A stretch of DNA of 61,510 nt, filler included. It is 14 parts of 14 records of this genome, joined end to end, with 100 filler letters (N's around TTAATTAATTAA, not from the genome) between each part and the next. Parts side by side here need not be neighbours in the genome. Positions count along the whole stretch, not along the records: positions 3,407 to 6,585 come from SRR7504441_80183; 13 more parts are not named here. The stretch is one strand, 5' to 3'. Below the pieces are notes generated by a model. It was not told where the DNA came from and ran no database searches. It saw nothing but the letters and a program-made list of their open reading frames with translations. Below are positions 3,407 through 61,510 of this stretch, in pieces (positions within the stretch are counted from its first letter, which is position 1; every line of letters starts with the position of its first letter). The translations under genes were made by a program, and so were the position numbers.

Positions 3407-3580
3407 CACCCGCGCTGATTGAGTTAACAAAAATTCCTTCTCATGCATTCGGCCTGGCCCACTAATTAAGAGGCCGTTACGCGATGGAGGGGGCCGAGCG
3501 TTGGGATGAGGGGCTGGGCGGCGATGCGCTAGCGGAGTTCTGGTTGGACGGGGACTTGAACGCGGGCGCTTTCGGGGGGT

Positions 3581-6166
3581 TTGTGCATGGGAACGCGAGC
3601 AATCGCGACGGCCGGCGGCACAGGCGATCGCGTGGGAACGCGGGGGGGGGGGGACAAGCGGCAGAGGGATTGGGCAGAGCGTCGGTCAGATCAGCGGCAG
3701 ACTGGCGAACGCGCACAGCAGCGACGCGGTAGGGGGTCAGCGGAGAGGCGGCGGGCACGGCGAGCACAGGACGGGACGCGGGGCGTAGTCAGCAGCGGCG
3801 GCAGTGATAGCGACAGTCCGGGCGAGGACGCGGGATGGGTAGACGCGCTGAGCTGGGTATCGGCGGTCGAGGCGGGCAGTGCAGAAGTGGAGGGAGGTGC
3901 AGTGCACGAAGCTGCGCGGCAGGTGGAGGAGATCCGGCGGTGCGAGCAGGTAATTAGGCAGCTAGAGGAGACGCTGGAGCAGAGGACGAGGCTGGTATGG
4001 ATAGCGAGAGGACAGGCGCTGGGCAGGGCGATCAGGAGGAGGCAGGCTGGTGGTACGACAGGGCAGCGGACATTGGGGCAAATTGTGGCGGATTGGCGGA
4101 GGGCAGCACGCAGAGCAGCAGCGGTTAGCGTGCTTTTACAGCGGGCGGCAAGGGCGGCAGGGGTCGGGTTGGCGATGCAGATGCTGGTGTACAACTGGAG
4201 GTGGGCTGCTAGTGAGGGGACAAGGCATGGGGCCGAAACAGGGTCACTGGTGGCAAGTGTGTTGGCAGGGGTAGCGGAGGAGGATAGGCTCAGGCTGGAG
4301 CAGGAGCTGCGCAGGCGTGAGATGCTGGGGTGGAGCAGAGGGGAGCAGAGGGTGGATGAGATATACAGGGAGGAGTTCAACAGGATGGAGAGGCAGCTGG
4401 GGCAGAGTGAGACGGAGCTGAGGGAAACGCAGGACAGGCTGGATGGAGCAGAGTGGCAGTTGAGGTTAAGGGAAGAGGCAGAGCGGGTGGGCAGGGGAGA
4501 GGAGGAGTGGCAGCGGGTGCTAAGGAAGTACGCGGAGCAATGTGAGCCGGGGGAGAGCATTTCCTATACGAAGTGCACGCTCAGGCGCTACTGGGACGAG
4601 CCCAGGGTTAGGATGTCGGTGGCAGAGGGGGTGTGTCGGCAGCTGGAGGAGAGGGTGGAGGTGGGGAGGGCTGAGACGTTGGGGGAGGAGGTGCAGTGTT
4701 TGCAGGAGAGCAAGCGACGGCTGGAGCAGGAGGTGACGAAGTGGACGGAGGCAGCGGAGGATGCGGAGGCGGGTTGGATGGAGCAGCAGGAGAGGATGTT
4801 TGCAGTCGTGCAACAGCTGCAAGCTGAGAGGCAGAGTCTTGAGCAATTGAGGCAGGATCAATGGAAGGAGAGGGAGCGACAGAAGGAGGAGCATCGGAGG
4901 CAGCGGCGTCTGTTGCATGGGCAGAGGTTGGTGGAGGCAGCGGTCAGCAACGGGAGGGCTAGGATTTGGCGGATGCCGTGCCTGGGGCTGCAGGAGTTGG
5001 GGGAGCTGCGAGTTGTAGCAGGGGTGAGTGCAGGGCTCAGGCAGAAAGAGGTTGGTGGGGGGGCGGTGTTATTTAATTATAAGTCTGGGGACGAGTTGGA
5101 TGGAGTGGTGGACAAGGTGCTGGGGATCAGTGCAGAGGACAGGGTGGACAAGGTGCTGGGGAAGGGTGGGAGAGACAAAGCGTGGCTTCAAGCGCGGCGG
5201 AGGGTGGCGGAGCTCGTTCACGAATGCAGGGGAGTGGTGTTCTCAACTGATGGCAGGGTGTTGGCAAGGCCGGTACAGCGGTTCATGAGGCTGTGGGAGA
5301 TGCAGCGGCTGGCGGACCAGATTGTGCCTGAGGTGGTGACAGAGAAATTAGATGGCGAGATGATGTGTGGGATGGTGGTGGGGGGATCGGTGGAGCTATG
5401 GTCCCGAGGCGGATGGACCGAGCAGGCGGTGTCAGCAACTCGGGCAGCGAGTGAACAGCCGGGGATTTGCGAGTTGGTGTCTGAGGTGTGGGAGCTGGGG
5501 AGCAGTGTGACTTTCGAGTACATCGGCAGGCAGAGCTTGGTGAAGGTTAGGTATGAAGAGACGCAGCTGGTAGTGGTGGCAGTCAGAGTGCGGGACACAG
5601 GAGAGTGGTGGGCGTACGAACAGCTAAAGGAATTGTGTGAGCGGCACGGGGTAGCGGTGGTCCATAGGCTGAGCGATCTGGAGAGTCTGACGCTGAGGGA
5701 ATTGGGTCGTGTAGTTGAAGGCTGGGTGGGGATGGAGGGAGTTGTGGTTTGGCTGGGGGCGGGTGAAGCGTGCAAGGTCAAGACCAGATGGTGGCTGAAC
5801 AGGAGCAGCAGACAGAAGCGGAGATGGTACAGGCCACTGGCAAGAGAGCGGGCGACGGAGAGGCGGGCAAAGCGGGAACAGCATTTGGAGACGGTGCAGC
5901 AGAGGGTGACGCTTCGGGGCTGGTGCAGCAGGGTGAGCCCAGTGGAGGCAATGAAAGCCTTTGGAGCTGACAAGGTTGAGGCTTTTTATCGGAGGTCGGA
6001 CGGCAAGCAGGGAACAGTAGTGGTGAGTTTTAGGGAGGCGGACAGGGCCAGGAAGTTGAGGGGCCAACAAATTTGCGGGGACCAGGAGCTGTGGGCAGAG
6101 CAGGCATACAGCATGAGGTCAAGGAGCAACGAGTATAGAGTGGTGAGGGCATGGTGGGGTGCATAG
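3581..6166 (+). CDS. Intronless 861-aa protein: long coiled coil + T4 Rnl1-like RNA ligase domain + C-terminal RRM-like domain
   Basis: Rnl1-type LFNY and ECRGVVFSTDGRVLARPVQRF, then nucleotidyltransferase motif I EKLDG (Lys codon 5345-5347), III TFEY, IIIa VVAVR, IV EGVVV and V KVK. E/R/Q-rich heptad region upstream. C-terminal RVTLRGW..KQGTVVVSF..A..LRG resembles RNP2/RNP1. Confidence 0.82.
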   Translation: MCMGTRAIATAGGTGDRVGTRGGGDKRQRDWAERRSDQRQTGERAQQRRGRGSAERRRARRAQDGTRGVVSSGGSDSDSPGEDAGWVDALSWVSAVEAGSAEVEGGAVHEAARQVEEIRRCEQVIRQLEETLEQRTRLVWIARGQALGRAIRRRQAGGTTGQRTLGQIVADWRRAARRAAAVSVLLQRAARAAGVGLAMQMLVYNWRWAASEGTRHGAETGSLVASVLAGVAEEDRLRLEQELRRREMLGWSRGEQRVDEIYREEFNRMERQLGQSETELRETQDRLDGAEWQLRLREEAERVGRGEEEWQRVLRKYAEQCEPGESISYTKCTLRRYWDEPRVRMSVAEGVCRQLEERVEVGRAETLGEEVQCLQESKRRLEQEVTKWTEAAEDAEAGWMEQQERMFAVVQQLQAERQSLEQLRQDQWKERERQKEEHRRQRRLLHGQRLVEAAVSNGRARIWRMPCLGLQELGELRVVAGVSAGLRQKEVGGGAVLFNYKSGDELDGVVDKVLGISAEDRVDKVLGKGGRDKAWLQARRRVAELVHECRGVVFSTDGRVLARPVQRFMRLWEMQRLADQIVPEVVTEKLDGEMMCGMVVGGSVELWSRGGWTEQAVSATRAASEQPGICELVSEVWELGSSVTFEYIGRQSLVKVRYEETQLVVVAVRVRDTGEWWAYEQLKELCERHGVAVVHRLSDLESLTLRELGRVVEGWVGMEGVVVWLGAGEACKVKTRWWLNRSSRQKRRWYRPLARERATERRAKREQHLETVQQRVTLRGWCSRVSPVEAMKAFGADKVEAFYRRSDGKQGTVVVSFREADRARKLRGQQICGDQELWAEQAYSMRSRSNEYRVVRAWWGA

Positions 6167-6197
6167 ATGTGGGCACTAGGGGACAGGCAGGAGTCTG

Positions 6198-6277
6198 GGC
6201 AGCGGATTGGAGTTACAGCAGATTGGGATGGCAGCGGATTGGAGTTACAGCAGATTGGAGTTACAGCAGATTGGAGC
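6198..6277 (+). repeat. Tandem repeat of a 16-nt unit GCAGATTGGAGTTACA, including a 29-nt direct duplication
   Basis: ggcagcggattggagttacagcagattgg occurs twice, followed by agttacagcagattggagc. Confidence 0.9.
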
Positions 6278-6332
6278 AAGTAGTTAGCGGATACTTAGGA
6301 GTTACGGTTAGGAGTTAGCAGATAGGAGTGGG

Positions 6333-6441
6333 GGCGAGCGCATCTCGCGCGGAGACCCGGGTCGCTTTGTTGGCGGTTTGGGGGGTCAAACTTTGATCGT
6401 CAATAGGGTGATTTGGGTCTCTACGCGGGGGTGCGCTCGCC
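6333..6441 (+). ncRNA. Long G-U-rich stem-loop (candidate structured RNA or ssDNA element)
   Basis: Manual pairing of 6333-6378 with 6441-6395 gives 32 Watson-Crick and 13 G-U pairs, one C-A mismatch and one bulge. Confidence 0.7.
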
Positions 6442-6916
6442 GTGAGTCTCGAGGCGGTATGCCTCTACAGTGGTGTGTTGTGATAATAGCGTATGCCAAG
6501 CAAATGCTGCTGTGGCATTGGAGCAATGCATCGAATAAACGCTAGGTCTGGGCGAGGATGTCGGTGCGCCAATGCCAGTGGGTAGNNNNNNNNNNNNNNN
6601 NNNNNNNNNNNNNNNNNNNNNNNNNNNNNTTAATTAATTAANNNNNNNNNNNNNNNNNNNNNNNNNNNNNNNNNNNNNNNNNNNNATACAGACTTGAACA
6701 CGTACTAAGCCAAGCTGCCTAAATACCTAGCCGCCTTGTTCGTACACAATGCCAAACTATAGTACGACTGATCAATCATGTTTATAGTGTACATACAAAC
6801 ATAAAAATTCTTTAATTTTCAGATCTTCTCAAAACCCAGCCGACTCGGTCACTACTCGGTCACCCGAGCTGTACCCGAGCTAGAGTGGACAACGCATTAC
6901 GCAACCATTGTATATA

Positions 6917-11201: not shown

Positions 11202-14200
11202 AGGCGCTCAAGGAGAGCGACCAGGGCCGGCTCAAGGACGGAGGCCTCCAGGCCATCGACCAGATGGCTGAAAGCATCTCACAGCTGGTGCACACAATGG
11301 CCGAGCGCGAGCTTGCAGAAGTCGACCCAGAGCGGCCGCTCCCGCCCTCGATCTGCGCCCAGGAGAACGCTGGCGAGTACCGGGACTTTGAATACTTCCA
11401 CCTGCTGCGGAACAGGGATCCGAGCAGGGGCGAGGAGATTGAGGACGACTATGCCGGGGCGGGCGGGGTGACCCAGACCCCTGAGCTGGTAGACCTGACC
11501 AAGCTCTACGCGCCGGGCTCGATCACGAGCATGATCCAAGTGATCCAGGCGCTGGCTGCAGTGGAGGAAGTTGTGGATAAACTAATGGCGAGAGCGTACG
11601 ACGACAAGGCGCAAGCCGCCTCTCACCTGATCATGCACTACCAAGTGATCAAGATCATCGGAGAATGCTTCACCGAGGTGGAAAGGGCCTGTCCGTTGCT
11701 GACTGGGTGGGGCTAGGTGATTCCGATCCCAGCAGCAGGCGATGCTCCGTGCATCTGGGCTCCAGTGACCGTGGAGATGCAGAAGGGGCTCTTGAAGAGC
11801 ATCTACCGGGCCATGTTCACCTACGGCCAGATGTGGCAGGACCTGGAGGAGCCGACCAGGATGGACGAGTGCGAGCGGGCCGTGGTGGTGGCCTGCATCT
11901 ACGCGTGCTTTGACAAAGCTGTCCGGACACCTGCTGTTGACGACATGCTGCCAGTCACAGCCCAGCTGCTGGACGATGGCGGCTACCACCTCCCAGTGTG
12001 CCTCGAGAGGCTGCGTGGTCAGCTCCCGCTGGTTCAGGGATCTGGCCGCTACGAGTTGTCGAATCCGATCTTGACAGAGGCGCGTGCTGCAGTTGTGGCC
12101 TACATGGAGTACTCGCAGCAGAACTGCCAATACGAGGTGTTCGACATGATGATCGAGCCCGGCCCGAACAAGGGCATGATCTACCTCAACAAAGACGAGC
12201 CAACCTGCACTTTTGTGCAGAATCTGGTTCTCCGTTGCGGGTACGAGCTGTCGCCCCGCGGCCAGTTCCGGCCCAAGAACGAGATGGAGGCTGTGGTCAT
12301 GTGGTTCTTCACGATCGGCGAGATCGCGCCCCCGCCGTACCACCAGCTGGGCAAGGAGCACCCAGAGTACATGTACCTGAGGGACATCTGCGCGCTGTTC
12401 AAGCACCTCTCATCAAGCATGCCACAAACGCGCGAGACGCTCACAATGGGCAAGGACCAGGACGTGAAGCAGTATGAATGGATCTTCGATCAAGGCACCA
12501 AGCGGCACCTGACGCGTCAGACCATTGGGCAGCTGTACTGGGAGGCCCTGGACCAGCCCGGCTACGACCCTTACCACACCAAGTGCCACGTGCAGGTGTT
12601 CTGGGAAGGTGGCAGGCAGCTCATCTGGGGCGAGGGCGAGACAATCAGAAGCCCTGCCGACACAGAAGTCATCTTTGGCAAGCCGTACATCACCGAAGAC
12701 GATGTGCTGCACACAGAATCTGCCCGGCTGATCGAAGTCAAGCAGATTGCTGGCACTCTGAACCCAGTCGAGGCCGAATCTGTGCTGTCCTTCCTCACTG
12801 TTCCGTATGTGCGAATCCCTCTGATCGTTGGATTCTTTGCCTCAAACGAGCGCACCTCTCTGCTGTTCCAGAAGCCGTTGCAGGAGCTGCTGCGTGCTGT
12901 GCTCTTTGAGCAGGGCCCGTGGGTGCCTGCAGAGGACAACGAGATCGAGAAGGTGCCGCTCCGGATGACAAAGCAGCAGGAGCAGGCGCACATGATGCAT
13001 GTAGCGCAGCACGCAGCAACCATGTCGCTCGAGCGCGAGTGCCTGGGTGCCCCGTCCGGGCTGCTGATGAATGAACTTCGCAGTTGCCCAGAAGGAACTC
13101 TCAAGCCGCTCATGCGCATGCTTCGGTACGTCGAGGAGGTGCAACATTCGTCAGTCCACTCCGAGGACGCCAAGTTCGTCATGTACATGATCTCGATCGC
13201 TATCAACGTGGAGAAGTACGTGATTCACGCACTAGGTGCGCCCGAACTGGTCGATCCCGCGGTGCTGGCCGACCTCCGCAAGTATCGCAACGAGCTTGCA
13301 GATTACCTGCGCGGGCTGGCCACTTCGATCCTGAAGCAGTGGCTGTTCGAGGCTTCTGCAGAGGTACCCTCGGGGTATCAGGCAAACCAGACAGCTCAGA
13401 ACATTCCGACTCTTTCGGTGGTCCATTCTTACCTGGCACTGTGCTGGGGCAACCTCGAGCCTGCCTCGGAGGACGAGGCTAATGTTGCCGCGATCTCAGT
13501 CAAGGTGGTGGGCGAGCTGCTTGGGCACATGGCGTTTGTGCGGACTTACCACAACTTTGGCCAAATCTTGGTCAACTTGGAGCTGAACGTTGATGACGCT
13601 TCGGACCCAAAGAAAGTCGAAGCCGCGTGCCTCAAGGCAATGATGCTCTTCATGCAGGTGCACGCTTTGCTTGAGACAGCAGGTCACTCAGTTGTGTGTG
13701 AATGCAGTCAAACGGTGTTCCTCCCAACAGGATCAACCGGGATGAGCTGAAAGGGTGCGCTAGAATCCAGCTTGCACTAGCATGCCTTGTCCACCTTGCA
13801 CATGATGATCTGTTTTACATCTTGAGCGCCATTACGATGCTCCCGGGGCCGCAACCTCGCTAGCGGGATGAGCTGAGATATGTACCTGATGCTTGAGTGC
13901 CCCCGCCGCTTGCTTGATGCCTGTGCTGGGCTGTGCGTGCTGAGCTGCTGCGGGCAGGTATCTCACTGGCGAGCCTCTTTGGTTCCGGTACGACAACAAA
14001 GTGGTCCGGGTGCCGCTTCCTGGGATCCAGGTGCTAGCTAGATCAATGGATTGATTTTGACTTCGATGGTGACCACAGGCTCTAAGGACTGGCAAAGCGT
14101 TCAAGCCTCCCCCTTGCGAAGTGCCCGAGTACGAGCTGTTTGGATCTCTGCAGCAGCACCGCCGCGCTCTCTTGGCATTCATTCGAGCCCAGCCGCCTCA

Positions 14201-15900
14201 GGTCGTCAATGCAATCTTCGACAATGTGCTCCACATTGCACTCGGCTCGGAGAATGACTCGGCACGGCTTGGAGGATGGAGCGAAGCCTCGCCTGGGGTT
14301 TTCCAGGCGAGCTTTTGACTGCCTGGCCGACCAGCTGAGCCGGTGGGCAGTGTGGCACAATGCGCTTTGATGTGCAGACGGCTGAGGTGCTGTCCGAGCA
14401 CGGCCAGACCTCGCCTGTGCCCGAATCAATGAGCTCCTTCCCAGACTTTGAGACCATCTTCTCCCGCGAGGCACTCCAATGCACTTGGCTCTACCAGCAC
14501 TCGCACCGCAAGTGACCGCCCAAACCAGTGCCAGGCTGCTGAATGGCTGTGGCAGGTGGGTAGAGGTCCTTGGGGCACTGGCTCGCTCAAACTCGTCGGC
14601 TATGACTTACGAGCTGCTCGAATGGGACGAGCCCGAGCCGCTTAGGCAAGGCGTTGGGTCCCCGACAATGGTACTCGACCCCACGCTGCCTCAGGACCCA
14701 ACACTGCCTTACGGAGACCCACTAGACGGCTTCTGGTACAATGGACAGCAGTACACGCGGCCATACCGGCACTATCTCACAGGAGAGCAGCAGCCGCAGC
14801 CACCGCCTCCAGCTGCCACTGAGGAATGGCTGGTCGAGATCCTCCAGCCAATCCTGGAGGTCGAATTCCCAAAGCAGCAGCCAATGAAGTGGCCGCTATT
14901 CATGCAAACAGAGACACTTGAGGAGGGCGCTGACCGGTGTCTGCTGCTCGGGATTGCTGGGTTTTCAGAGGTCGAAGAGGAGGAGCAGCGGCTCTGGGCG
15001 ACCTTCAAGGAAGTGGTGGTGCTCCGCCATCGCAAGGTCGTGCACGTGTACAACCTGGTGAGCCACGGCCGGAGGGCATACCGCACATTGGTGTGGACCT
15101 CCGACACTAGGTTCTGCCTCCGGTCGATGAAGCCAAAGTACTTTGACAACAAGAAGGTCAGGAAAGCCATAGTACACTGCTCAGGGACATTCGACCAACG
15201 GAGAGAGTATGCAGCATCACTGATCATCAAGCGGCAGAACCCAGTGATCGCAGGGCGCGAGATGTTGGTGCCACCTCGTCTGCTCGAGGGCCTGATCCCT
15301 GCAGCGCTCCTCGAATCGCACAGATTCTGGCAGGTTCACTGGCCTTAGGCTGCGCCTGACTCAAATTGTGTGTGTCAGGGAGAGGACTCTGTGCTGCGCG
15401 GGACCCCACGCGATGCGCGCGACGAGTGGTTTGACTTCAAAGTGGAGGTTGTTCTCGCCTGCAATGAGCACGGGGCATGGGTCGCCAAAATCACTCGAAA
15501 AGACCAGTCAGACTTCCACAAGATCGACTCGCCCTTCGCCTTCAAGTCGCCCCAGCTCTTCCGGCGTGCAACCAGCTCGGCGCTGACGCGCATGAACTCT
15601 CAGGCACTCTCGTCAACAGTCAAGCCGAATGTGCCAATCCTTGCACGGAATCCGTCGCTAGTGAGAACAGAGTCCACAGAGGTGCGTGTGGCACCGCTGA
15701 TCGAGCAAGGGTTTCCTCTGGAGGCCGCGGAGTACGCTCTGAACACATTCAGAAGGCCAGATGGCTCCGACAACTACGACCTGGCAGTCTCTTGGCTGTC
15801 TGACAAGCACAACCTGCCCACCATCAACCACATCGTCGCTGCCGACAAGACTGAGGCGCCTGTCAAGTTGTCACGTGCCAAGTCGCGCATGGGCGGTGTG
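11202..15900 (+). CDS. Internal fragment of a very large protist protein with a UBA-like domain near 15700-15800, multiple introns
   Basis: Chain of long + ORFs joined by short introns. ITEDDVLH..SFLTVPYVRIPLI recalls giant DUF3638/DUF3645-type protist proteins (from memory). LIEQGFPLEAAEYAL..YDLAVSWL is UBA-like. Confidence 0.6.
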
Positions 15901-15935
15901 TCTGGTGCCGGTGTGTCGTGGACCAGACCAATGGC

Positions 15936-16019
15936 GCCGCACCCCACCGACCTGGTGCTAACCCTAACCCTAACCCTAACCGCCGCACTCCACCGACCTG
16001 GTGCACCCTAACCCTAACC
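15936..16019. repeat. Composite minisatellite: 23-nt unit alternating with telomere-type (TAACCC)n
   Basis: gccgcac(c/t)ccaccgacctggtgc occurs twice, each followed by taaccc repeats, running into the contig end. Confidence 0.88.
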
Positions 16020-20038: not shown

Positions 20039-23000
20039 GCATGTAGCCAAAGGCCAAATTCGGACCCAGCACCAGGGAGATGATATCTCACTTCCCAATC
20101 TTGTCCCTAGTATTACAGTTTCGTTGGTTATCCACCATTGAAAATATTGCTGCTCGAACCTGACACAGTTGCTTTTCTCAAGTTCTTTGTGGTGCGGTTC
20201 TGTCCTTGACAGCACGATGGCATGCGCATTTGTTCCAGAAAACCCGAACGAGTTTATGCCTTTCGATTGGACAGGACTCTCGCTTGTTTGCTGTGTCTTC
20301 AAGAGCGTTGCAAAATTCTGGAGTGGAAGGTGCTCGTTTGGTCGTTTCAGGCTTAAGTTGGGAGGAGAAAGCCGCTTTTCCAATCCGAGCACTGCTACAA
20401 CTAATGAAGCGCACCCAGTGAAGTACTCGGCATGTCCCAGGTGGGTTTTAAGAGCCCCAATGCTAACTGGCGTATGCAGATGCCCATTTCCAAGCGCAGA
20501 ATGGAGTGCATCGATCTCGATTGGGTCGCCGAGTGGAGTGCCCGTTCCATGAGCCTCGATAGAGTGACGCAAATGATCGATCCTTGCCTGTTGCAAGGCC
20601 TTGACCAGCATCGCACGCTGAGCTGTTCCATTCGGTGCTGAAAAACTGGCGCTGCGGCCATCTTGATTAACGCAGGTAGACCTGATTACAGGCAAGTCTA
20701 GTTGTATCGACTCCAATACTACAGCAAAACAACCTTCCCCAAGACCAAAGCCATCTGCGGCTGCATCAAATGTCTTGCACTGGCCATTGAATGCGAGTGG
20801 GAGTGTAATTGAGCCCATCCATGCAGAAGCATGAACTGATAAAGAGACACCCGCAACAAGTGCAGTTTGACAGCTCCTTCTGTGCAAAGATGCCCTCGCG
20901 GTGTCCAATGCCACCAATGATGCCGAACACGCAGTGTCCACTACTAGGCACGGTCCCCTGAGCCCTAAAATGTAGGATATTCGACCTGCCGCTGCAGCCG
21001 GGGAAGCCCCAGCTGCAGTAAACACGGACTCGGCGAGGTTTTCCAGCACGCGAGACCACAAAGTCTGGCCAAAGCCTATAAACACACCAATGCCTTGCTC
21101 GAATAGCGTGGATTTCTGATGGCCAGCGCGCGAGAAGGCACCAAAAGCAACTTCGAGAAGCAGCCGATGATTAGGATCAGTCACGCTTGCTTCAATGGGG
21201 CTAAGACCAAAGAATTCCTGGTCGAAAACTTCAGCACGGTCAACAATGTGTCCACGATATACCAGTGGTTGGATTGAAGCCTTCGTCTCAACTGACTGCG
21301 AGTCGCATCGCGAGAGAGGTGGAATGCTTGTCGAGTCGTGTGCAGAGGATATCGCTGCCCAGAGGAGCTGGGTGTCAGAGCACCCATCTGGTGCTCGACA
21401 GGAGACACCTCTGCACTTCGGTAATAAGGTCGAGTCGTCCAAACACAGATCGTCATTGGCCAAGTGAAGAGCTGCCAGCGGGTCTCGATTTTGTCTGCTG
21501 CTCGCATAAAGAGCGATCGCCCGGACTGTCGGATAGCTGAAGACCAAAGTCGCCGGTAATCGCGTAGTCTGGTCCAAAATAACATCTAATGATCTTGCAA
21601 GCTCCACAGCCTGGCTTGACTTGAGCCCTGCTTCTAAGAGTGGCTGAGTGGCCACAATTGCTCGGCCCAGGACTTGACTGACATGTGCAAGGACTCTCAG
21701 CTCAACGCTCTGTTCAAATTTGCTCGCAGAGGGCTTCCCAACAAAAGAGCACGTGTTGAGTAGAGGCTCCTGGCTGCCTCTTGAATTCTGCAGGCTTATT
21801 TGTTCGTGGTGACCATGATCCAGGGGCACTGTTCGAGCAACCTTTGAGTGGCTGTTTGTCCCCGATACCTGATCTGCTGCTGCTGAACCTCTGGCCTGAT
21901 TTCTGCAGCTGGACTGCGCTCTTGTATCTCTCTGATTTATGGCCTGGTTGTATTCAAGAGCAAGGTGTACGTTGAACCCACTTCCAGATGTCCCGCTTAT
22001 CCCGATTGAGAGGATTTCTCCTTCCAGGCGAATGCTTGTATGAGATATTGGAAGGCAAATACTCTGCTGGGAATTTCTGAGCCTACTACAGAGGGTGTCG
22101 ATCCCAACTGCACCGGGAACAGCCTGATGGTGGAGTGCAAGAGTGCACACAATGGCTGCAATGACACCAGCAGCAGACATCGAATGCCCAATGTGCCCTT
22201 TGTGTGAGATTAAAACGAGTGGGCTCGATGCTGAGCGGGTGGCAGCCATCGGCATCACAACTCCATCTATTTCAGGGAGGTCCGAAGCTGGATTACCCAT
22301 GGCATGTAGGTGAACGGCTGCTTCTTGATCAAGTTTCCTCGTGGCTTTCTGGGTCACAGTCTCCATAGCATCTGGATCAGCAAAGCCTAGTGGGCACTGT
22401 GTACCATTCTGGTTGGTGGCGTGGCCTGTAAATGCAGCTAGAGAGCGTAGCTGCGAGGTGGTTCTGTGAAGAATCAAAGAACCATAGGCTTCACCGGGCA
22501 TTGTTCCATCGGCACTCTCGTCTAGTGGCTTCAAACGGCCAGAAGGCGAGAGAATGCCAGCTTTATGAAGTTTTATGAGCTCGGCTGTATGGAGCATCAG
22601 ATAAACGGCGCCAATGACCGCAAATTTGCAGCTGCCCTCCTCGATTGCGCGGATTCCTTCATCTGTTGCCAGGTACCCCGCCGAGCAGGCAGCTGTCACG
22701 TTGGCATGTGGACCGTTGATCTGAAGGGTGGATGCAACAACATGACTTATATGGAATGATCTGGTGGGCACCAAGAAGTCCAGAGGGTCAGCTCCGGTAA
22801 AAAGCCCAACCTTTTGATCCAATGCAGACAGCGTGAGATCAGCATCTTCTTCAGCTGCACGTATGATTTCCACTAAGCAGTGCACATGCATGTCGGTGTA
22901 AGGAGGTATTTGTCGGATTGCAGGTTTAGTGGCGTCATGAAGTTGGACAAACGCACCGCTGTAGATAGTGCTAGCGACGGCTGCTTGCTTGCAGGCATCC

Positions 23001-23631
23001 ACCCAGCGGGTCGGCGATGAAGAGGTGATGCAACATCTGCCCGAAATAAGCACGTCCCAAAGATGTGCAGGGTCATGAACGCCGCCGCTCGTGTGGCATG
23101 CAAACCCGCTTACACCAACACCAGATTTTTTTTCCGTTAGGTTGTGAGGCACCATTGTGAGTTCCATTACAGTGGATTTCACGACGAGACAATCGTCAAT
23201 GTATTGCGCAAGCAAAGATGCTGTAGGATGCTCGAAGAGGATTGCGCTCGGGAGTTCAACATTGATTTCCTGCTGCAGCAAATTTCGAAACTCGATTGCG
23301 GACAAAGAATCTAATCCAGAGTCTTGGAGAGAATCGTCTGCGGAAACAATTGTCCCAGTAATTGCCTTGACCTTCAAAATGATTGTGTCCAGTACCTGAC
23401 TGAGTGTCTGCAAGGCCGAATGACAAGAATGCGAATCAGACTTTACATAGGGTTTGGCCTTTGTTTGCTGCCAGCCTATATTAAGCTGCCGTAGACCAAA
23501 CTGGGGTGTACTCCAAATGGACATGCTCTGCAAGGCAGCCATTGCTCGAAGGACACAACAAACAGAGGGGACAGTTTCCTTCAACAAAGATGTGGGCGTT
23601 TGCACTGTATACAACTCAGCCCAAGCCCCCC
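20039..23631 (-). CDS. Modular type I polyketide synthase fragment: ACP-KS-ACP-KS, no AT domain, open at both ends
   Basis: ACP GLDSLSAIEFRN. KS1 TAACSAG / HLHAMG / KGHIGH. ACP EAGLKSSQAVEL. KS2 DTACSASL / EAHGTGT / KTHLGH / NSFGFSGTNAH. Confidence 0.93.
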
Positions 23632-57238: not shown

Positions 57239-60200
57239 TCAAAGATCCAGCTGCGTGGCAACAAAGTTTTTATAAAACCAGTCGCAAAATACTTCAAAGG
57301 TCCATTCTTCACCCCCAGATACCTTTGCCAGAGCTGGCTCTAAAATCTGTGAAACATACAAGCTTAGGTCATCGCACATCAGGCACGTGACACCTCGTCA
57401 ATTAGCGAGAGTGACATTCGTACATCTAGTGCCTTGATAACATTGATTGTCAGATATTGGAGCTCGTCCCCATCATTCAATGTGCCTGACTTATCAAGGT
57501 CGTACCTAACACCAGAGCTAGTTAAAGAACTGCATCTAGATGCCAAAATATCACCTGTTGAAGTAAGTGCGCAGGGTCTGGTTGCTCTTTGCAAGCCACT
57601 CGTCGAACGGAGAAGAACCCGTGTTGTCCTCACTTACTTTCAAATCTCCAATCAACGGCTCTGCAGCCACAATCCCGTCTGCTGTCTCAAGCAACCGATC
57701 GGCGCTAGTTGGTGATTCATGGCTTGCTGAGTCTGAAGCGCTGTCCAGATCTTCTTTGTCGCCCTTGCTCCCATTGACAAGGGCATTATCTTCCTTGTGT
57801 AGCCCATTTGACTTGAACTCAAGAGGCAACTGCTCTCCTGGATCTGGCAGGACGACTCTCAAACCATCATCAGAGATGCTCTCTGCAGTGTACCCTGGGA
57901 GCAAGGGCCGGAACGGATCTCTGTACTCATTGCAGACATACAAATCGTGCTCCTGCAGCCCCATTGGGCCTTGAATTAGGAGATAAATCAATGATAAGTA
58001 TTCGACGCCCTCCAGAGTGCACTGACCATCCTTCTTAGTAAGCAGCAGCGTGGTATCAGTCTGGTTCCACCTCTCAAAGTCCTCGGTGAATACATCAGTG
58101 TTGTCTCCATTCCATACATCCTCCCCGTTGTCCTCGATTCTTTTGAATATTTCCCTTGACTCTTCAACAAGGGCAAGCCGCTCCTTGAGCTTTTCAAAGT
58201 TGGCGCGGCATTCAGTCTCCTGCTCATCTGTATCGGTCCCATTAGGGCCAGTTCCAAAGGAGCTGTAGTCGACATAGAATGGCTCGTCTTTCTGATTGAC
58301 CTCGCCAGTTAGGAACAGATTTGGAATGTTCTTCTGGGTTATTGCCAACAGGCACTGGAGGTCGTCAACGGGCATCGATGCATCGCCATCAATATCAAAC
58401 CTATCCCAGATAGACTTAAAGTGCCTCAAATGCTGAGCCGAGATGTTGAGCGACCCAGTGATCTCAGAGGGCTCCAAGGAGTAGCACCAGGTGAACGCGT
58501 TCAGGATAATAGCAACCACCAGGTTCAGCACTGCAAACGCAGTCACCGTCATGAAGAGCAAGAAGAACAGGACTGCTTTTACGTTATCACCACAATCATT
58601 GACATCATCAGTCAAGTCTGGCTGCGCATCCTTCTCTAGAATAGTACAATCAGGGATCATCACCATCATATCGTACATTGTCGAGCGCCAGTTGCCGAGT
58701 GCATTTCGCCACAGCACGTGGAATGAGTCAAGAAAGGTGGTAAAGTTTGAAATAAGGCTGACAGATGTACCATACCTTGTCTTCCCAAAGAGCTCCACGC
58801 CAATCACTGCAAAGATGAAGAATACCAGGAACAAGACCATAAACACATTACTAATTGCTGGAATGGTCCTGAATAAGGTCATCATCAGAGCACGGATTTG
58901 CGGCGCACGCTTGACGAGCCTGAAGATCCGGCAAACCCGAAGCAACCCTGCAAATGCACCCCCTTCCAGAGGGATAAAAATGATTGATGCAATCACCACA
59001 ATTCCATCAAATGCATTCAGTGGGTCACTCCAGTATCCTTTGAAGCCGAGCCCAAGATGCTTGATGGTCATTTCAATAGTAAAAATGACTGTGAAAAATA
59101 TATTCTGCACATATTGAATAGTGTCCCACGCAGTCCCCTGATTGTGGTGATACGTGCACATGAACAAGATGTTGATCATGATACAGAGAGTGATCACATT
59201 GTCGAAAACCATTCCAGACTGATACACCCATCCCTCTGGCACTTGTTGAAGGGACAGTGATTCCCATGTGAACTCATTAAACACCTCCAGATCAGCTTCC
59301 TTCCTGGCCAGGTCTGAATACATTGTTTGCAGCGCCTGGTCAATTGTTTTTAGTGTAAAATCATCATCAGTGATCGCCCGCTGCTTGAGAGTTTGCTCAA
59401 TGTTGCGCCGCAGACGTGGAATTGTCAACACATCACCCACATTTGGGATTTTATTCTTCTCCAGGTAGCTCTCAAGACCAGGCATTGGCAGAGGTCGGAC
59501 ATCTGTAAATATGAGATAGCAAGTTGAGCGAATATTGTCTGGCACGTATTCACCATCTGCAGAAGGACATGGAGGCTTGGGCTCCGGAATCAGCATTCTG
59601 TTGAACTTCATGCAATCAGCCAACATAAGTTGGTCTCCAGTCAGCAATCCAGAACCCTCCGTCACTACAAATTTGTCAATTATCACTGCAACGAATAGTT
59701 GAATCATGAAAAGCTGACCCATGAACACAAAAATCACAATGTAGATACCCCAGTAGGGTGCTCCGTCACAGGATGGAGCTTCATGCGGTTTCTCTGGCAC
59801 GTCATTTGTGGACCAGAGCATAGTCTCCCAGGAGTCACCCGTGGATATTTCAAAAAGGGTCATGTAGGCAGCTGCAATGTTGTCAAAGGAGTATGTGCCG
59901 TATGTGAGTGGCTGCCAAAAGATGGCAGGGTTGTTCCAAAGCATTGGCACGAGGTAACCTGTTGTGTCGGGCTCTTCGGAATCGTTATTGATCCTGTACA
60001 CACCAAAGCAATCTTCTTGGCCGACAAATGTATCACAGTAGGTTCCTACGCACTTATTGCAGGACCAGAATTTACCCTTGAGCATGGAGACACCAAGAAT
60101 GGCAAAGATCAACCACACGGCCACAAGAAGAATGCACACATTTCCAAGAGGTGGGACTGAAGCCATGAGTGATTCCATCACCAGCTTCATACCTTTGACA

Positions 60201-61510
60201 CGGTTTACCATCCTGAGTGGTCTGAATGCCCTGCAGAGTCGAAGGAGTTTGAGAGGTCCCTCTGCAAGTCCCAACAGTCCTATGTACCCAACAACAAGAA
60301 CAATGATATCCAGGTAGTTCCATGCATCATACATGTAAGATTGACGCCCAGTATCACCGAGACAGAGTCGCTTGACGTTATCAGGGCTTCTCAGCATCAG
60401 CTGTACATTGTCTGTGTGCATAAAGCCATGTGCAATAATCTTGAGTAAGCACTCAAAAGTAAAGATGATGACAAAGATGATGTCGTTCATTTCGAAAAAG
60501 TCCACCCATCCGGGAATATCACGAGTAGAGGGGCTGTCGAGTGCCAGCAATACTGTTGAGTAGATGATGATCAGGAGAATGAACGTGTCAAACGTCCAGT
60601 GCTCCACAACGGCAATCACAGGGCGGCGGAACCAATGGTCAGGTTTCATGACCCAGAATGTCACGTTGGTGACAGGGTATCCAAAGCGCACCAAGTCCTC
60701 TGTCACATATGATTGTTCAAAGGTCTCCGTTGCACAATCAAGGGCCATGACCTGCGCCAGACTGGTCACGTCACCTTCGCAGCCAGTGGACTCCCACTCC
60801 TTTTCACAATAATTAATAAACAGCTGTGCTTCCCGAGCCCGAAGCTGCTTCTTGTCCATATCATTGCGCATTTGAGTGGTGAATTCAAGCCGGTCCTCGT
60901 CCTCAAATGAAGACATGTTGGCAAGAATTGCACCAATAAACAGATTGAGGATAATGTAATTGGAAATGATGAAGAAGGACAGAATAATGATTGCTGCTGT
61001 TGTGTTGCGATAGGCAGGTGCTCCACAAGCATTGATACAGTCGAACAGCACCAGCTCCCATGCAGAACCTGTGAGGACTTGAAAGAGTGTGTAAAAGGCT
61101 GTTCCAAAATTGTCGAAATTGGCACGCGGCTTATTATCACACAGGACTAAGTTAGGATCGCTGTCAGGAGTATCGACAAACCTATCAAACTTGTTCCCGT
61201 AGAGTTGCATACACAGGCAGGCATAGACAATTATCACAACCATCATAAAGGTGAAGATATTAATGATGGACGTCAGAGACCCGACAGCAGCGTCAACGAT
61301 CTCCCTCACAGAGTCCACACGGCGCAGCACACGCACGACTCTCAATGCACGGAAAATACGGAGAACCTTCACCAGAGCAAAGTCGATATCAGCTGCATCA
61401 AAGACAATATTGACAATGGATGCCATGACGATACAGAAATCAAATCTGTTGGATCCAACGCGCCAGTAATTGCAGAATCCTTTCATACAAAAAAATTTGG
61501 TGAGCATCTC
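57239..61510 (-). CDS. Four-domain voltage-gated Ca/Na channel, domains II-IV plus C-terminal EF hands, 5' truncated
   Basis: Three S4 segments (LRIFRALRVVRVLRR, LRLCRAFRPLRMVNR, LRVCRIFRLVKR) with pore loops. Spliced last exons YDLDKSGTLNDGDEL..WTFEVFCDWF extend the gene beyond the ORF stop at 57551. Confidence 0.93.

Follow-up and report, generated by a model that had tools for sequence, protein, structure and literature searches.

The window, that is, the whole 61.5-kb stretch of DNA analysed here, is made up of 14 short contigs (3.2–8.8 kb) with runs of N around a six-frame stop spacer between them. The ORFs scanned from seven of these contigs, other than the one described below, encode ordinary eukaryotic-type domains, several of them in long uninterrupted ORFs, and include a repeat-bearing Ion_trans channel of the voltage-gated type, EF-hand, MFS and GH3 domains, and the ACP and ketosynthase domains of a polyketide synthase. 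CCCTAA telomere repeats are found at the end of one other contig. These eukaryotic-type domains and the telomere repeats mark the window as genomic DNA that belongs to a eukaryote or was binned with one. No tRNA genes were found in the 61.5 kb, a search of the whole window against Rfam 15 gave no match at gathering thresholds (no rRNA or snRNA), and the dinoflagellate spliced-leader motif was matched only by chance, with three mismatches.

One contig, referred to here as the host contig, carries an unusually G-rich RNA ligase gene of a probable marine eukaryote and, in the putative 3′ UTR of that gene, a long hairpin. Its features are given below in coordinates of the window, all on the + strand.

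3407..6585, + strand: host contig, 3179 nt, between two N/spacer blocks, with one long ORF
3407..3483, + strand: 5′ flank, unremarkable in composition (C 30%, G 21%), with the G skew beginning right downstream
3581..6166, + strand: ligase ORF, 861 aa, with a basic N-terminus, about 450 aa of predicted long helices (coiled-coil-like), a T4 Rnl1-like ligase domain and a C-terminal beta-alpha-beta domain
5222..5809, + strand: Rnl1-like nucleotidyltransferase domain, residues 548–743 (Pfam, phmmer and Foldseek)
5903..6157, + strand: C-terminal domain, residues 775–859, predicted strand-helix-strand-strand-helix-strand (RRM-like order), pLDDT about 90
6200..6276, + strand: tandem repeat in the putative 3′ UTR, 16-nt unit × 4.8
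6295..6329, + strand: tandem repeat directly upstream of the hairpin, 13-nt unit × 2.6
6333..6378, + strand: hairpin 5′ arm (MFE fold)
6379..6394, + strand: hairpin apex, with a U/U 1×1 loop (6379/6394), three extra pairs (6380–6382 with 6391–6393) and an 8-nt terminal loop (6383–6390)
6395..6441, + strand: hairpin 3′ arm, with a bulged G at 6427 and A 6423 opposite G 6350
6534..6539, + strand: AATAAA, possible poly(A) signal, 92 nt past the hairpin, with 46 nt left to the contig end

The composition of the host contig (G 44.3%, C 17.0%, A 21.9%, T 16.8%; 61% G+C) is unlike that of all other contigs in the window, and the GC skew lies at 0.4–0.55 throughout the ligase ORF. The preliminary description had called this a G/T skew. 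Fourfold sites of the ligase ORF (G 56%, A 22%, C 11%, T 11%) correct this, and the skew is toward G, or purine. Only two G-quadruplex motifs lie on the + strand of the contig, which rules out a G4 array as the form that the G-richness takes.

An Rnl1-type ligase and its metagenomic family

The central part of the ORF product scores 34.9 bits with Pfam PF09414, for which the cut-off is 27. A phmmer comparison of residues 548–743 with 2c5u gave an E value of 2.9e-9, the match covering chain residues 53–252 of 2c5u only, and Foldseek, run with an AlphaFold model (pLDDT about 90 in the ligase part), gave an E value of 2.3e-14 and a target TM of 0.52 against the same structure. The values for 2c5u, 9do4 and 5tt6 together are E of about 2e-14 and target TM of 0.52–0.53, and the next Foldseek matches are archaeal, Naegleria and fungal Trl1 ligase domains. 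The motif I lysine K589 (KLDG; KxDG), D591 and G592 are invariant in all 24 aligned family members. Judged by its predicted catalytic domain, the protein is an RNA ligase of the T4 Rnl1 type. Translation may in truth begin at ATG 3484, in which case the G run at about 3641–3654 would contain a frame change; the stop of the ORF coincides with the conserved C-terminus of the family.

The catalytic domain, with its invariant KxDG lysine, is what the protein has in common with T4 RNA ligase 1 (Rnl1) and with the ligase domain of the fungal tRNA ligase Trl1. In contrast to Rnl1, it carries about 540 N-terminal residues, basic and predicted to form long helices, and the all-helical C-terminal (tRNA-specificity) domain is replaced by the predicted beta-alpha-beta domain, for which residues 775–859 gave no Pfam match. 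It also differs from both Rnl1 and Trl1 in its extreme G-rich coding and its metagenome-only homologues, and no kinase, CPDase or other phosphoesterase domain of the end-healing kind was found in the protein.

A word-indexed search returned 12 clusters that are 47–51% identical over the last 382 residues; ENA, Logan or JGI assemblies are the source of every one, and no cluster is named beyond “hypothetical protein”. An exhaustive profile search gave 85 representatives at E ≤ 1e-30; roughly 55 of the 150 matches listed, counted by eye, reach through the C-terminal domain, and the others grade into phage-type Rnl1. The residues enriched in family members, R, E, V, G, A and W, are those that G-rich codons specify. 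The longest contig is 2.5–3.5 kb in 11 of the 12 clusters and reaches 4.5 kb in the remaining one, contigs are no longer than 3.6 kb for 28 of the 29 listed members of two clusters, and family contigs are of about 2.4–3.6 kb across many independent assemblies.

Peptide patterns searched in the viral contigs of IMG/VR returned 16 + 16 loci, all of them phage-like ligases at 22–36% identity; in a prokaryotic genome collection they returned none, then three actinobacterial ligases. A degenerate DNA pattern specific to the family had no match in either IMG/VR or the prokaryotic collection, and no earlier description of such a ligase family or of such a G-rich unit was found in open-access full text. 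As far as these comparisons of sequence go, the family is a sizeable and unnamed one of putative Rnl1 ligases, metagenome-only, eukaryote-like, G-rich and carried on contigs of about 3 kb. Most of the interest of the hairpin stems from the unusual ligase family that it adjoins.

Among the matches listed in a search of metagenome contigs (at least two loci), the only true relative with DNA is L001, a 3275-nt contig at 42% identity with 44% G and 16% C, whose fourfold sites are 46% G, 25% A, 13% C and 17% T. It shares the switch to ordinary composition in the first 140 nt, so that the 5′ ends of both contigs are of ordinary composition within about 80–140 nt, and it has a similar repeat-like tail past its stop codon. 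L001 ends 68 nt past that stop, before any hairpin could appear. No RNA run was listed among the public runs that match the host contig. Four runs from four studies (marine or seawater metagenomes, guessed to be of DNA) each contain 5–6% of the sampled words of the host contig, and at 80% likeness their pieces on the ligase ORF are two identical 151-nt pieces in run X1, one 262-nt piece with one difference in X2 and one identical 166-nt piece in X4. Depth over 6269–6585 is zero in all four, and the hairpin region is thus uncovered.

Structure and strand specificity of the hairpin

The preliminary description had counted 32 Watson-Crick and 13 G-U pairs between 6333–6378 and 6395–6441, along with a mismatch and a bulge, and had placed this hairpin downstream of a ligase ORF. 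The minimum free energy structure of 6323–6451 (ViennaRNA, + strand) matches that count exactly. The 45 arm pairs comprise 23 G-C/C-G, 9 A-U/U-A and 13 G-U, interrupted by one G/A mismatch (6350/6423) and the bulged G at 6427. Two of the three extra apical pairs are also G-U, which brings the hairpin to 48 pairs, 15 of them G-U, and the flanks pair weakly on beyond the stem (6325–6331 with 6443–6449). The placement holds as well: the hairpin begins 166 nt downstream of the stop codon of the ligase ORF, on the same strand, and ends 145 nt before the contig end, the last 145 nt being unrelated sequence. On the coding strand it lies between the ligase stop codon and the possible poly(A) signal. 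A 4-nt direct repeat, GAGT, flanks the stem at 6326–6329 and 6444–6447; we roughly estimate the chance of an accidental flank repeat of this type at about 5%.

Folding of both strands against shuffled controls was the first check that had been proposed for the hairpin. As RNA, the + strand folds at −86.9 kcal/mol (z −10.74; none of 200 shuffles as good), compared with −49.8 kcal/mol (z −7.86) for the − strand. With DNA parameters the difference is −35.3 (z −6.65) versus −26.6 (z −5.66) kcal/mol. The 109-nt hairpin itself (6333–6441) has an MFE of −79.4 kcal/mol and an MFE index of 1.15, and the 110-nt segment that holds it is 6 SD below the + strand mean of the host contig (−28.1, SD 8.3, over 205 windows of 110 nt). 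A gapless scan of the whole 61.5-kb window for places where 36 or more of 45 positions pair found the hairpin alone when + strand G-U rules were applied, and no locus under − strand or Watson-Crick-only rules. Other inverted repeats, with 19 of 20 positions paired, occur in the window in about the number expected by chance, and none comparable to the hairpin interrupts an ORF.

The hairpin matches no Rfam family: the Rfam search, likewise proposed at the outset, gave mir-H3 as its best match, whose 21.2 bits (E 8.1) fall below the gathering score of 70. In a search of the window for trans targets, the 21-mers of the arms did no better than chance, with a best penalty of 2.5, which 2 of 30 shuffles equalled.

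The G-U pairs are unevenly placed, with 3 among the 25 basal pairs (6333–6358) and 12 among the 23 apical pairs (6359–6382). With so few wobbles, the basal half is also an ordinary G+C-rich DNA palindrome that pairs on the − strand too, and the truly strand-specific part is the apical half only, as + strand RNA or as single-stranded DNA containing G-T pairs. The original reading, a strand-specific structure rather than an ordinary palindrome, thus stands for the hairpin overall and for its apical half, and fails for the basal half, which is a plain palindrome on both strands. The 23 consecutive apical pairs lie in register with the basal stem, for which arithmetic from the compositions gives a probability of about 1e-8 at about 45% chance pairing.

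The base composition of the hairpin runs against local compositional pressure, its C (24%) and T (25%) being about twice the values at fourfold sites (11% each). C and T, the two enriched bases, are those needed opposite G.

It had been allowed from the start that mutational skew of the contig, acting on a neutral inverted repeat, might be the source of the wobbles. Neutral decay was simulated from a perfect 45-bp palindrome under strand-specific models until 14 non-Watson-Crick positions had accumulated, in 16 settings that took their equilibrium from the fourfold sites, the contig, the UTR flanks or the hairpin itself and a transition bias of 1–10. The mean number of G-U pairs among the 14 positions ranged from 2.7 to 7.3, and the probability of at least 13 was 0 to 0.00075 in all 16 settings; these models are crude and composition-matched, and selection would be mimicked if change in the stem were strictly one-way, be it A>G alone or C>T alone. 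The G-U pattern is not explained by contig composition acting on a neutral inverted repeat. We regard the original observation as confirmed, and our analysis supports the core of its interpretation, a strand-specific RNA structure that is neither a skew artefact nor an ordinary palindrome. The functions first proposed for it, as ligase substrate or guide, replication or packaging signal, or small-RNA precursor, stay candidates.

Probable selection and other possible origins of the stem

The hairpin is probably an RNA stem-loop under selection, about 48 bp long and specific to one strand, in the putative 3′ UTR of the ligase mRNA. Under strong G pressure, changes from A-U to G-U would be tolerated because they keep the RNA helix, being the only G-gaining change that preserves pairing, and changes that break pairs would be removed. 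The apical wobbles would at the same time destroy the centre of the DNA palindrome and leave the RNA helix intact.

An explanation that we consider unlikely, and yet the best of the alternatives, is that the hairpin acts in cis as the recognition signal of a unit of about 3 kb, selfish or semi-autonomous, whose own protein would bind the 3′ stem-loop of the RNA that encodes it, so that this RNA is packaged, copied, circularised or ligated into other RNA. The uniform length of family contigs in many independent assemblies is consistent with such a unit, as are the extreme sense-strand bias common to the host contig and L001 (both 44% G), the return to ordinary composition close to the 5′ contig ends and a small 5′ hairpin (GNRA) that is conserved between the two. 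The predicted long helices and RRM-like domain also recall LINE ORF1 proteins. Short contigs (3–9 kb), however, are the rule across the window anyway, and the hairpin is not terminal, being 145 nt from the contig end. The host contig showed neither terminal repeats nor a second Pfam-matched ORF, a search for a polymerase, reverse transcriptase, integrase or nuclease on it also found none, and pairing between its 5′ and 3′ ends is not above chance (duplex −57.0 versus −57.5 ± 5.1 for shuffles, 105 of 200 shuffles being as good). The 5′ region overall is not more structured than shuffles, with z −0.20 in the window and −0.74 in L001.

We hold it quite unlikely that the stem is a neutral remnant of an inverted repeat, such as a foldback or MITE-like insertion or an old palindrome, whose arms diverged by one strictly directional, strand-specific process that left the G-U pattern without function. 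Candidates for a one-way process of this kind are A>G change from dsRNA editing of an element copied through RNA and C>T deamination of a displaced, G-rich non-template strand. The strand-specific bias is indeed very strong, purine transitions at fourfold sites favouring G over A (56% versus 22%), the basal half is a plain palindrome, and the flanking GAGT repeat could be a target-site duplication, at only 4 nt and near chance expectation. Against this origin, C and T are equally rare at silent sites, which argues against a dominant C>T flux. Moreover, gain of G at the cost of C or T needs transversions, so that a neutral stem would carry many G/G and G/A mismatches; a single one is present. 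As for the hallmarks of MITE and foldback elements, the inverted repeats are trivially there, as they make up the whole element, whereas blastn found no further copy of 6333–6441 in the 13 other contigs (58 kb) or in L001 (3.3 kb). The neutral-decay simulations also fail to give the G-U pattern.

A third origin, and a very improbable one in our judgement, is as an excisable, hairpin-type intervening sequence comparable to the non-canonical introns of Euglenozoa, in which a dsRNA nuclease would cut the stem, an RNA ligase (possibly the encoded one) would rejoin the flanks and the excised piece might circularise. In euglenids and hemistasiid diplonemids, non-canonical introns have paired ends and short flanking direct repeats, and a pathway of RNase III and RNA ligase has been proposed for the diplonemid ones (PMC12621601). 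The present element is similar in that its ends are brought together by extensive pairing, which joins 6333 to 6441 and continues weakly into the flanks, with GAGT as a possible 4-nt flanking repeat, and a ligase gene next to it would suit the proposed pathway. Long eukaryotic ORFs without interruption, of the kind seen in intron-poor protists, are present on other contigs of the window. The present element differs in that it lies in a putative UTR rather than in coding sequence, where excision would have no coding consequence, and in that the entire element, not its ends only, is stem. No comparable hairpin was found within any ORF of the window. The ligases of diplonemid mitochondria are RtcB, not Rnl1.

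An assembly artefact, in which a palindromic k-mer would have led to a strand-switch or foldback chimera, is hardly credible: such chimeras do arise in short-contig metagenome assemblies and the hairpin is near a contig end, but they would give a perfect inverted repeat, whereas here the arms differ at 15 positions (13 wobbles, the mismatch and the bulge), the 16-nt apex is asymmetric and unrelated sequence continues downstream.

Comparable 3′ hairpins and a cut-and-ligate proposal

A selected stem-loop in a 3′ UTR has precedents among hairpins cut by dsRNA-specific enzymes. An MFE index of 1.15 falls in the usual range for miRNA/siRNA-type precursors, and the long, nearly uninterrupted stem-loop of UTR-borne miRNA and hpRNA precursors is found here as well (48 pairs, one mismatch, one bulge). 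In Chlamydomonas, Dicer-like 3 directly cuts miRNA/siRNA-type hairpins in the 3′ UTRs of coding RNAs, the mRNAs bearing these hairpins over-accumulate in dcl3 mutants, and Drosha cleavage of a hairpin in the DGCR8 mRNA is cited there (Valli et al. 2016, PMC4817775). The present hairpin resembles the Chlamydomonas ones as a long, near-perfect, sense-strand stem-loop in the putative 3′ UTR of a coding transcript of a unicellular eukaryote, with G-U pairs tolerated. It differs from them in that its 45–48-bp stem is long enough for two phased duplexes and in that it has no sequence relation to any Rfam miRNA family. From these comparisons, the hairpin would work most like UTR-borne hairpins of the Dicer/RNase III kind, of which it is a candidate only.

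A second precedent is the “hairpin rule” of Mimiviridae, in which a viral RNase III cleaves hairpins at the 3′ ends of transcripts, which are then polyadenylated (Priet et al. 2015, PMC4402537). As with those signals, a palindromic hairpin past the ORF could set the mRNA 3′ end through dsRNA cleavage. The host contig, in contrast, is at 61% G+C, its single gene looks cellular or mobile and none of viral type is present, its hairpin is 166 nt past the stop with the possible AATAAA further downstream, and the G-U-rich apex shows conservation at the level of RNA rather than of a DNA palindrome. A terminator of the hairpin-rule type, which would be a palindrome at the transcript end in a giant-virus genome that has genes for the RNase III and for a poly(A) polymerase, was rejected for this locus, the ligase ORF being the only one on its contig, the ORFs scanned from other contigs bearing eukaryotic-type domains and one contig having telomere repeats at its end.

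Stringent-type LINEs provide a further comparison, since the 3′ stem-loop of these elements is recognised by their own proteins. Here too a stem-loop lies beside short tandem repeats in a putative 3′ UTR, in a sense-strand-biased unit whose protein has a predicted coiled coil and RRM-like domain. The present unit is, however, without a reverse transcriptase, and its repeats are upstream rather than downstream of the stem. A strict LINE 3′ stem-loop was rejected, as the host contig carries no reverse transcriptase.

Returning to the hairpin as a selected RNA stem-loop, the mechanism that we prefer, as a possibility well short of the probable, is that a dsRNA-specific factor would recognise its long and featureless A-form helix and that an enzyme of the RNase III/Dicer type would cut it. 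Helices such as this one, 45–48 bp long and poor in landmarks, are read by proteins with dsRNA-binding domains. A cut in the stem would remove the poly(A) end and so limit the ligase mRNA, and small RNAs may also come off the hairpin, as with DCL3 at the Chlamydomonas 3′ UTR hairpins. Cuts of the RNase III/Dicer type leave 5′-phosphate and 3′-OH ends, and it is such ends that an ATP-dependent Rnl1-type ligase with no end-healing domains can seal. Because the expected cut ends match the substrate of an Rnl1-type ligase, it may be put forward, as a chemically coherent proposal, that the encoded ligase would reseal the hairpin once it has been cut.

It is distinctly improbable that the contig belongs to a so far undescribed class of G-rich units, each about 3 kb long, that in marine protists propagate or regulate themselves through a cut-and-ligate cycle at the RNA level. 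Each unit would consist of a single gene for a coiled-coil/Rnl1 ligase/RRM-like protein together with its own 5′ GNRA hairpin and 48-bp 3′ hairpin; a dsRNA nuclease would open the 3′ stem, and the encoded ligase would reseal, circularise or join RNA. If this were true, the unit would be a protein-coding counterpart of viroid-like or retrozyme circles, equipped with a ligase of its own.

Taken alone, the hairpin is another long stem-loop of a putative UTR, with good evidence from a single sequence for selection at the RNA level, and it is the only strongly structured spot in an otherwise G-rich, pyrimidine-poor transcript. Should it be cut and resealed, or bound, by the ligase, it would be a case of an mRNA or element that carries an RNA-repair enzyme together with the substrate of that enzyme, and it would provide a first handle on what this ligase family does.

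The ligase family and its G-rich coding strand

The window's ligase gene belongs to a family of 85 representatives at E <= 1e-30, together with 12 close clusters, which comes from metagenomes only and has no name. Family contigs almost always measure 2.4–3.6 kb. The coding strands are extremely G-rich, with 44% G overall and 56% at fourfold sites (window 3407–6585; positions 1–3275 of L001, a metagenome contig carrying a related ligase). This bias could originate from mutation, from R-loop biology, or from selection for unstructured purine-rich RNA. Three long ORFs lie opposite the ligase ORFs:

Window 3691–4560, minus strand: antisense ORF of 289 aa
Window 5218–5973, minus strand: antisense ORF of 251 aa
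L001 847–2289, minus strand: antisense ORF of 480 aa

These long antisense ORFs are probably a by-product of a C-rich, stop-poor minus strand, on which stop codons occur at an estimated frequency of about 1.9% per codon. The 480-aa ORF of L001 exceeds the length expected from a simple model of such a strand.

The 5′ end and start of the ligase ORF

Two features lie near the beginning of the ligase gene:

Window 3594–3607 and L001 252–265: 5-bp stem with a GNRA tetraloop, near the 5′ end and conserved between both DNAs
Window 3484–3732: 82-aa frame opened by an ATG at 3484, overlapping the main ligase ORF in another frame

The 25 nt around the GNRA hairpin are 84% identical between the window contig and L001, and the stem carries one compensatory change, C-G to U-A. 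Structure in the 5′ region overall is no stronger than in shuffles. A GTRxNATA-like peptide matching the hairpin region is found in most of 12 aligned family proteins (approximately 9 of 12, counted by eye). The window ligase ORF and the L001 ORF read this region in different frames, and it is the 82-aa frame that matches the main frame of L001 through the conserved motif. A run of approximately 13 G at window 3641–3654 could conceal an assembly indel or be the site of a programmed frameshift; therefore, the true start of the ligase protein may be 3484.

Tandem repeats in the 3′ UTR

Window 6200–6329: short units repeated in tandem, one of 16 nt (4.8 copies) and one of 13 nt (2.6 copies), at the beginning of the ligase 3′ UTR

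The repeat units are composed of CAGCAG, TTAG and GGAG-like words, and a similar tail rich in CAGCAG/TAG directly follows the stop codon in L001 (3208–3275). These sequences may represent a common UTR feature or a protein-binding array.

Other contigs and the source organism

Window 15950–16019: telomere-type array of CCCTAA repeats at the end of contig 11202–16019, broken by a short segment of unique sequence
Contig 20039–23631: polyketide synthase fragment, two ACP domains followed by a KS, in a single ORF across the whole 3.6-kb contig
Window 57551–61510: repeat-bearing Ion_trans (voltage-gated-type) cation channel, 1318 aa, uninterrupted

The first of these is a chromosome end from a eukaryote with TTAGGG-type telomeres. 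The polyketide synthase and Ion_trans ORFs suggest that the main source of the window is an intron-poor marine protist.
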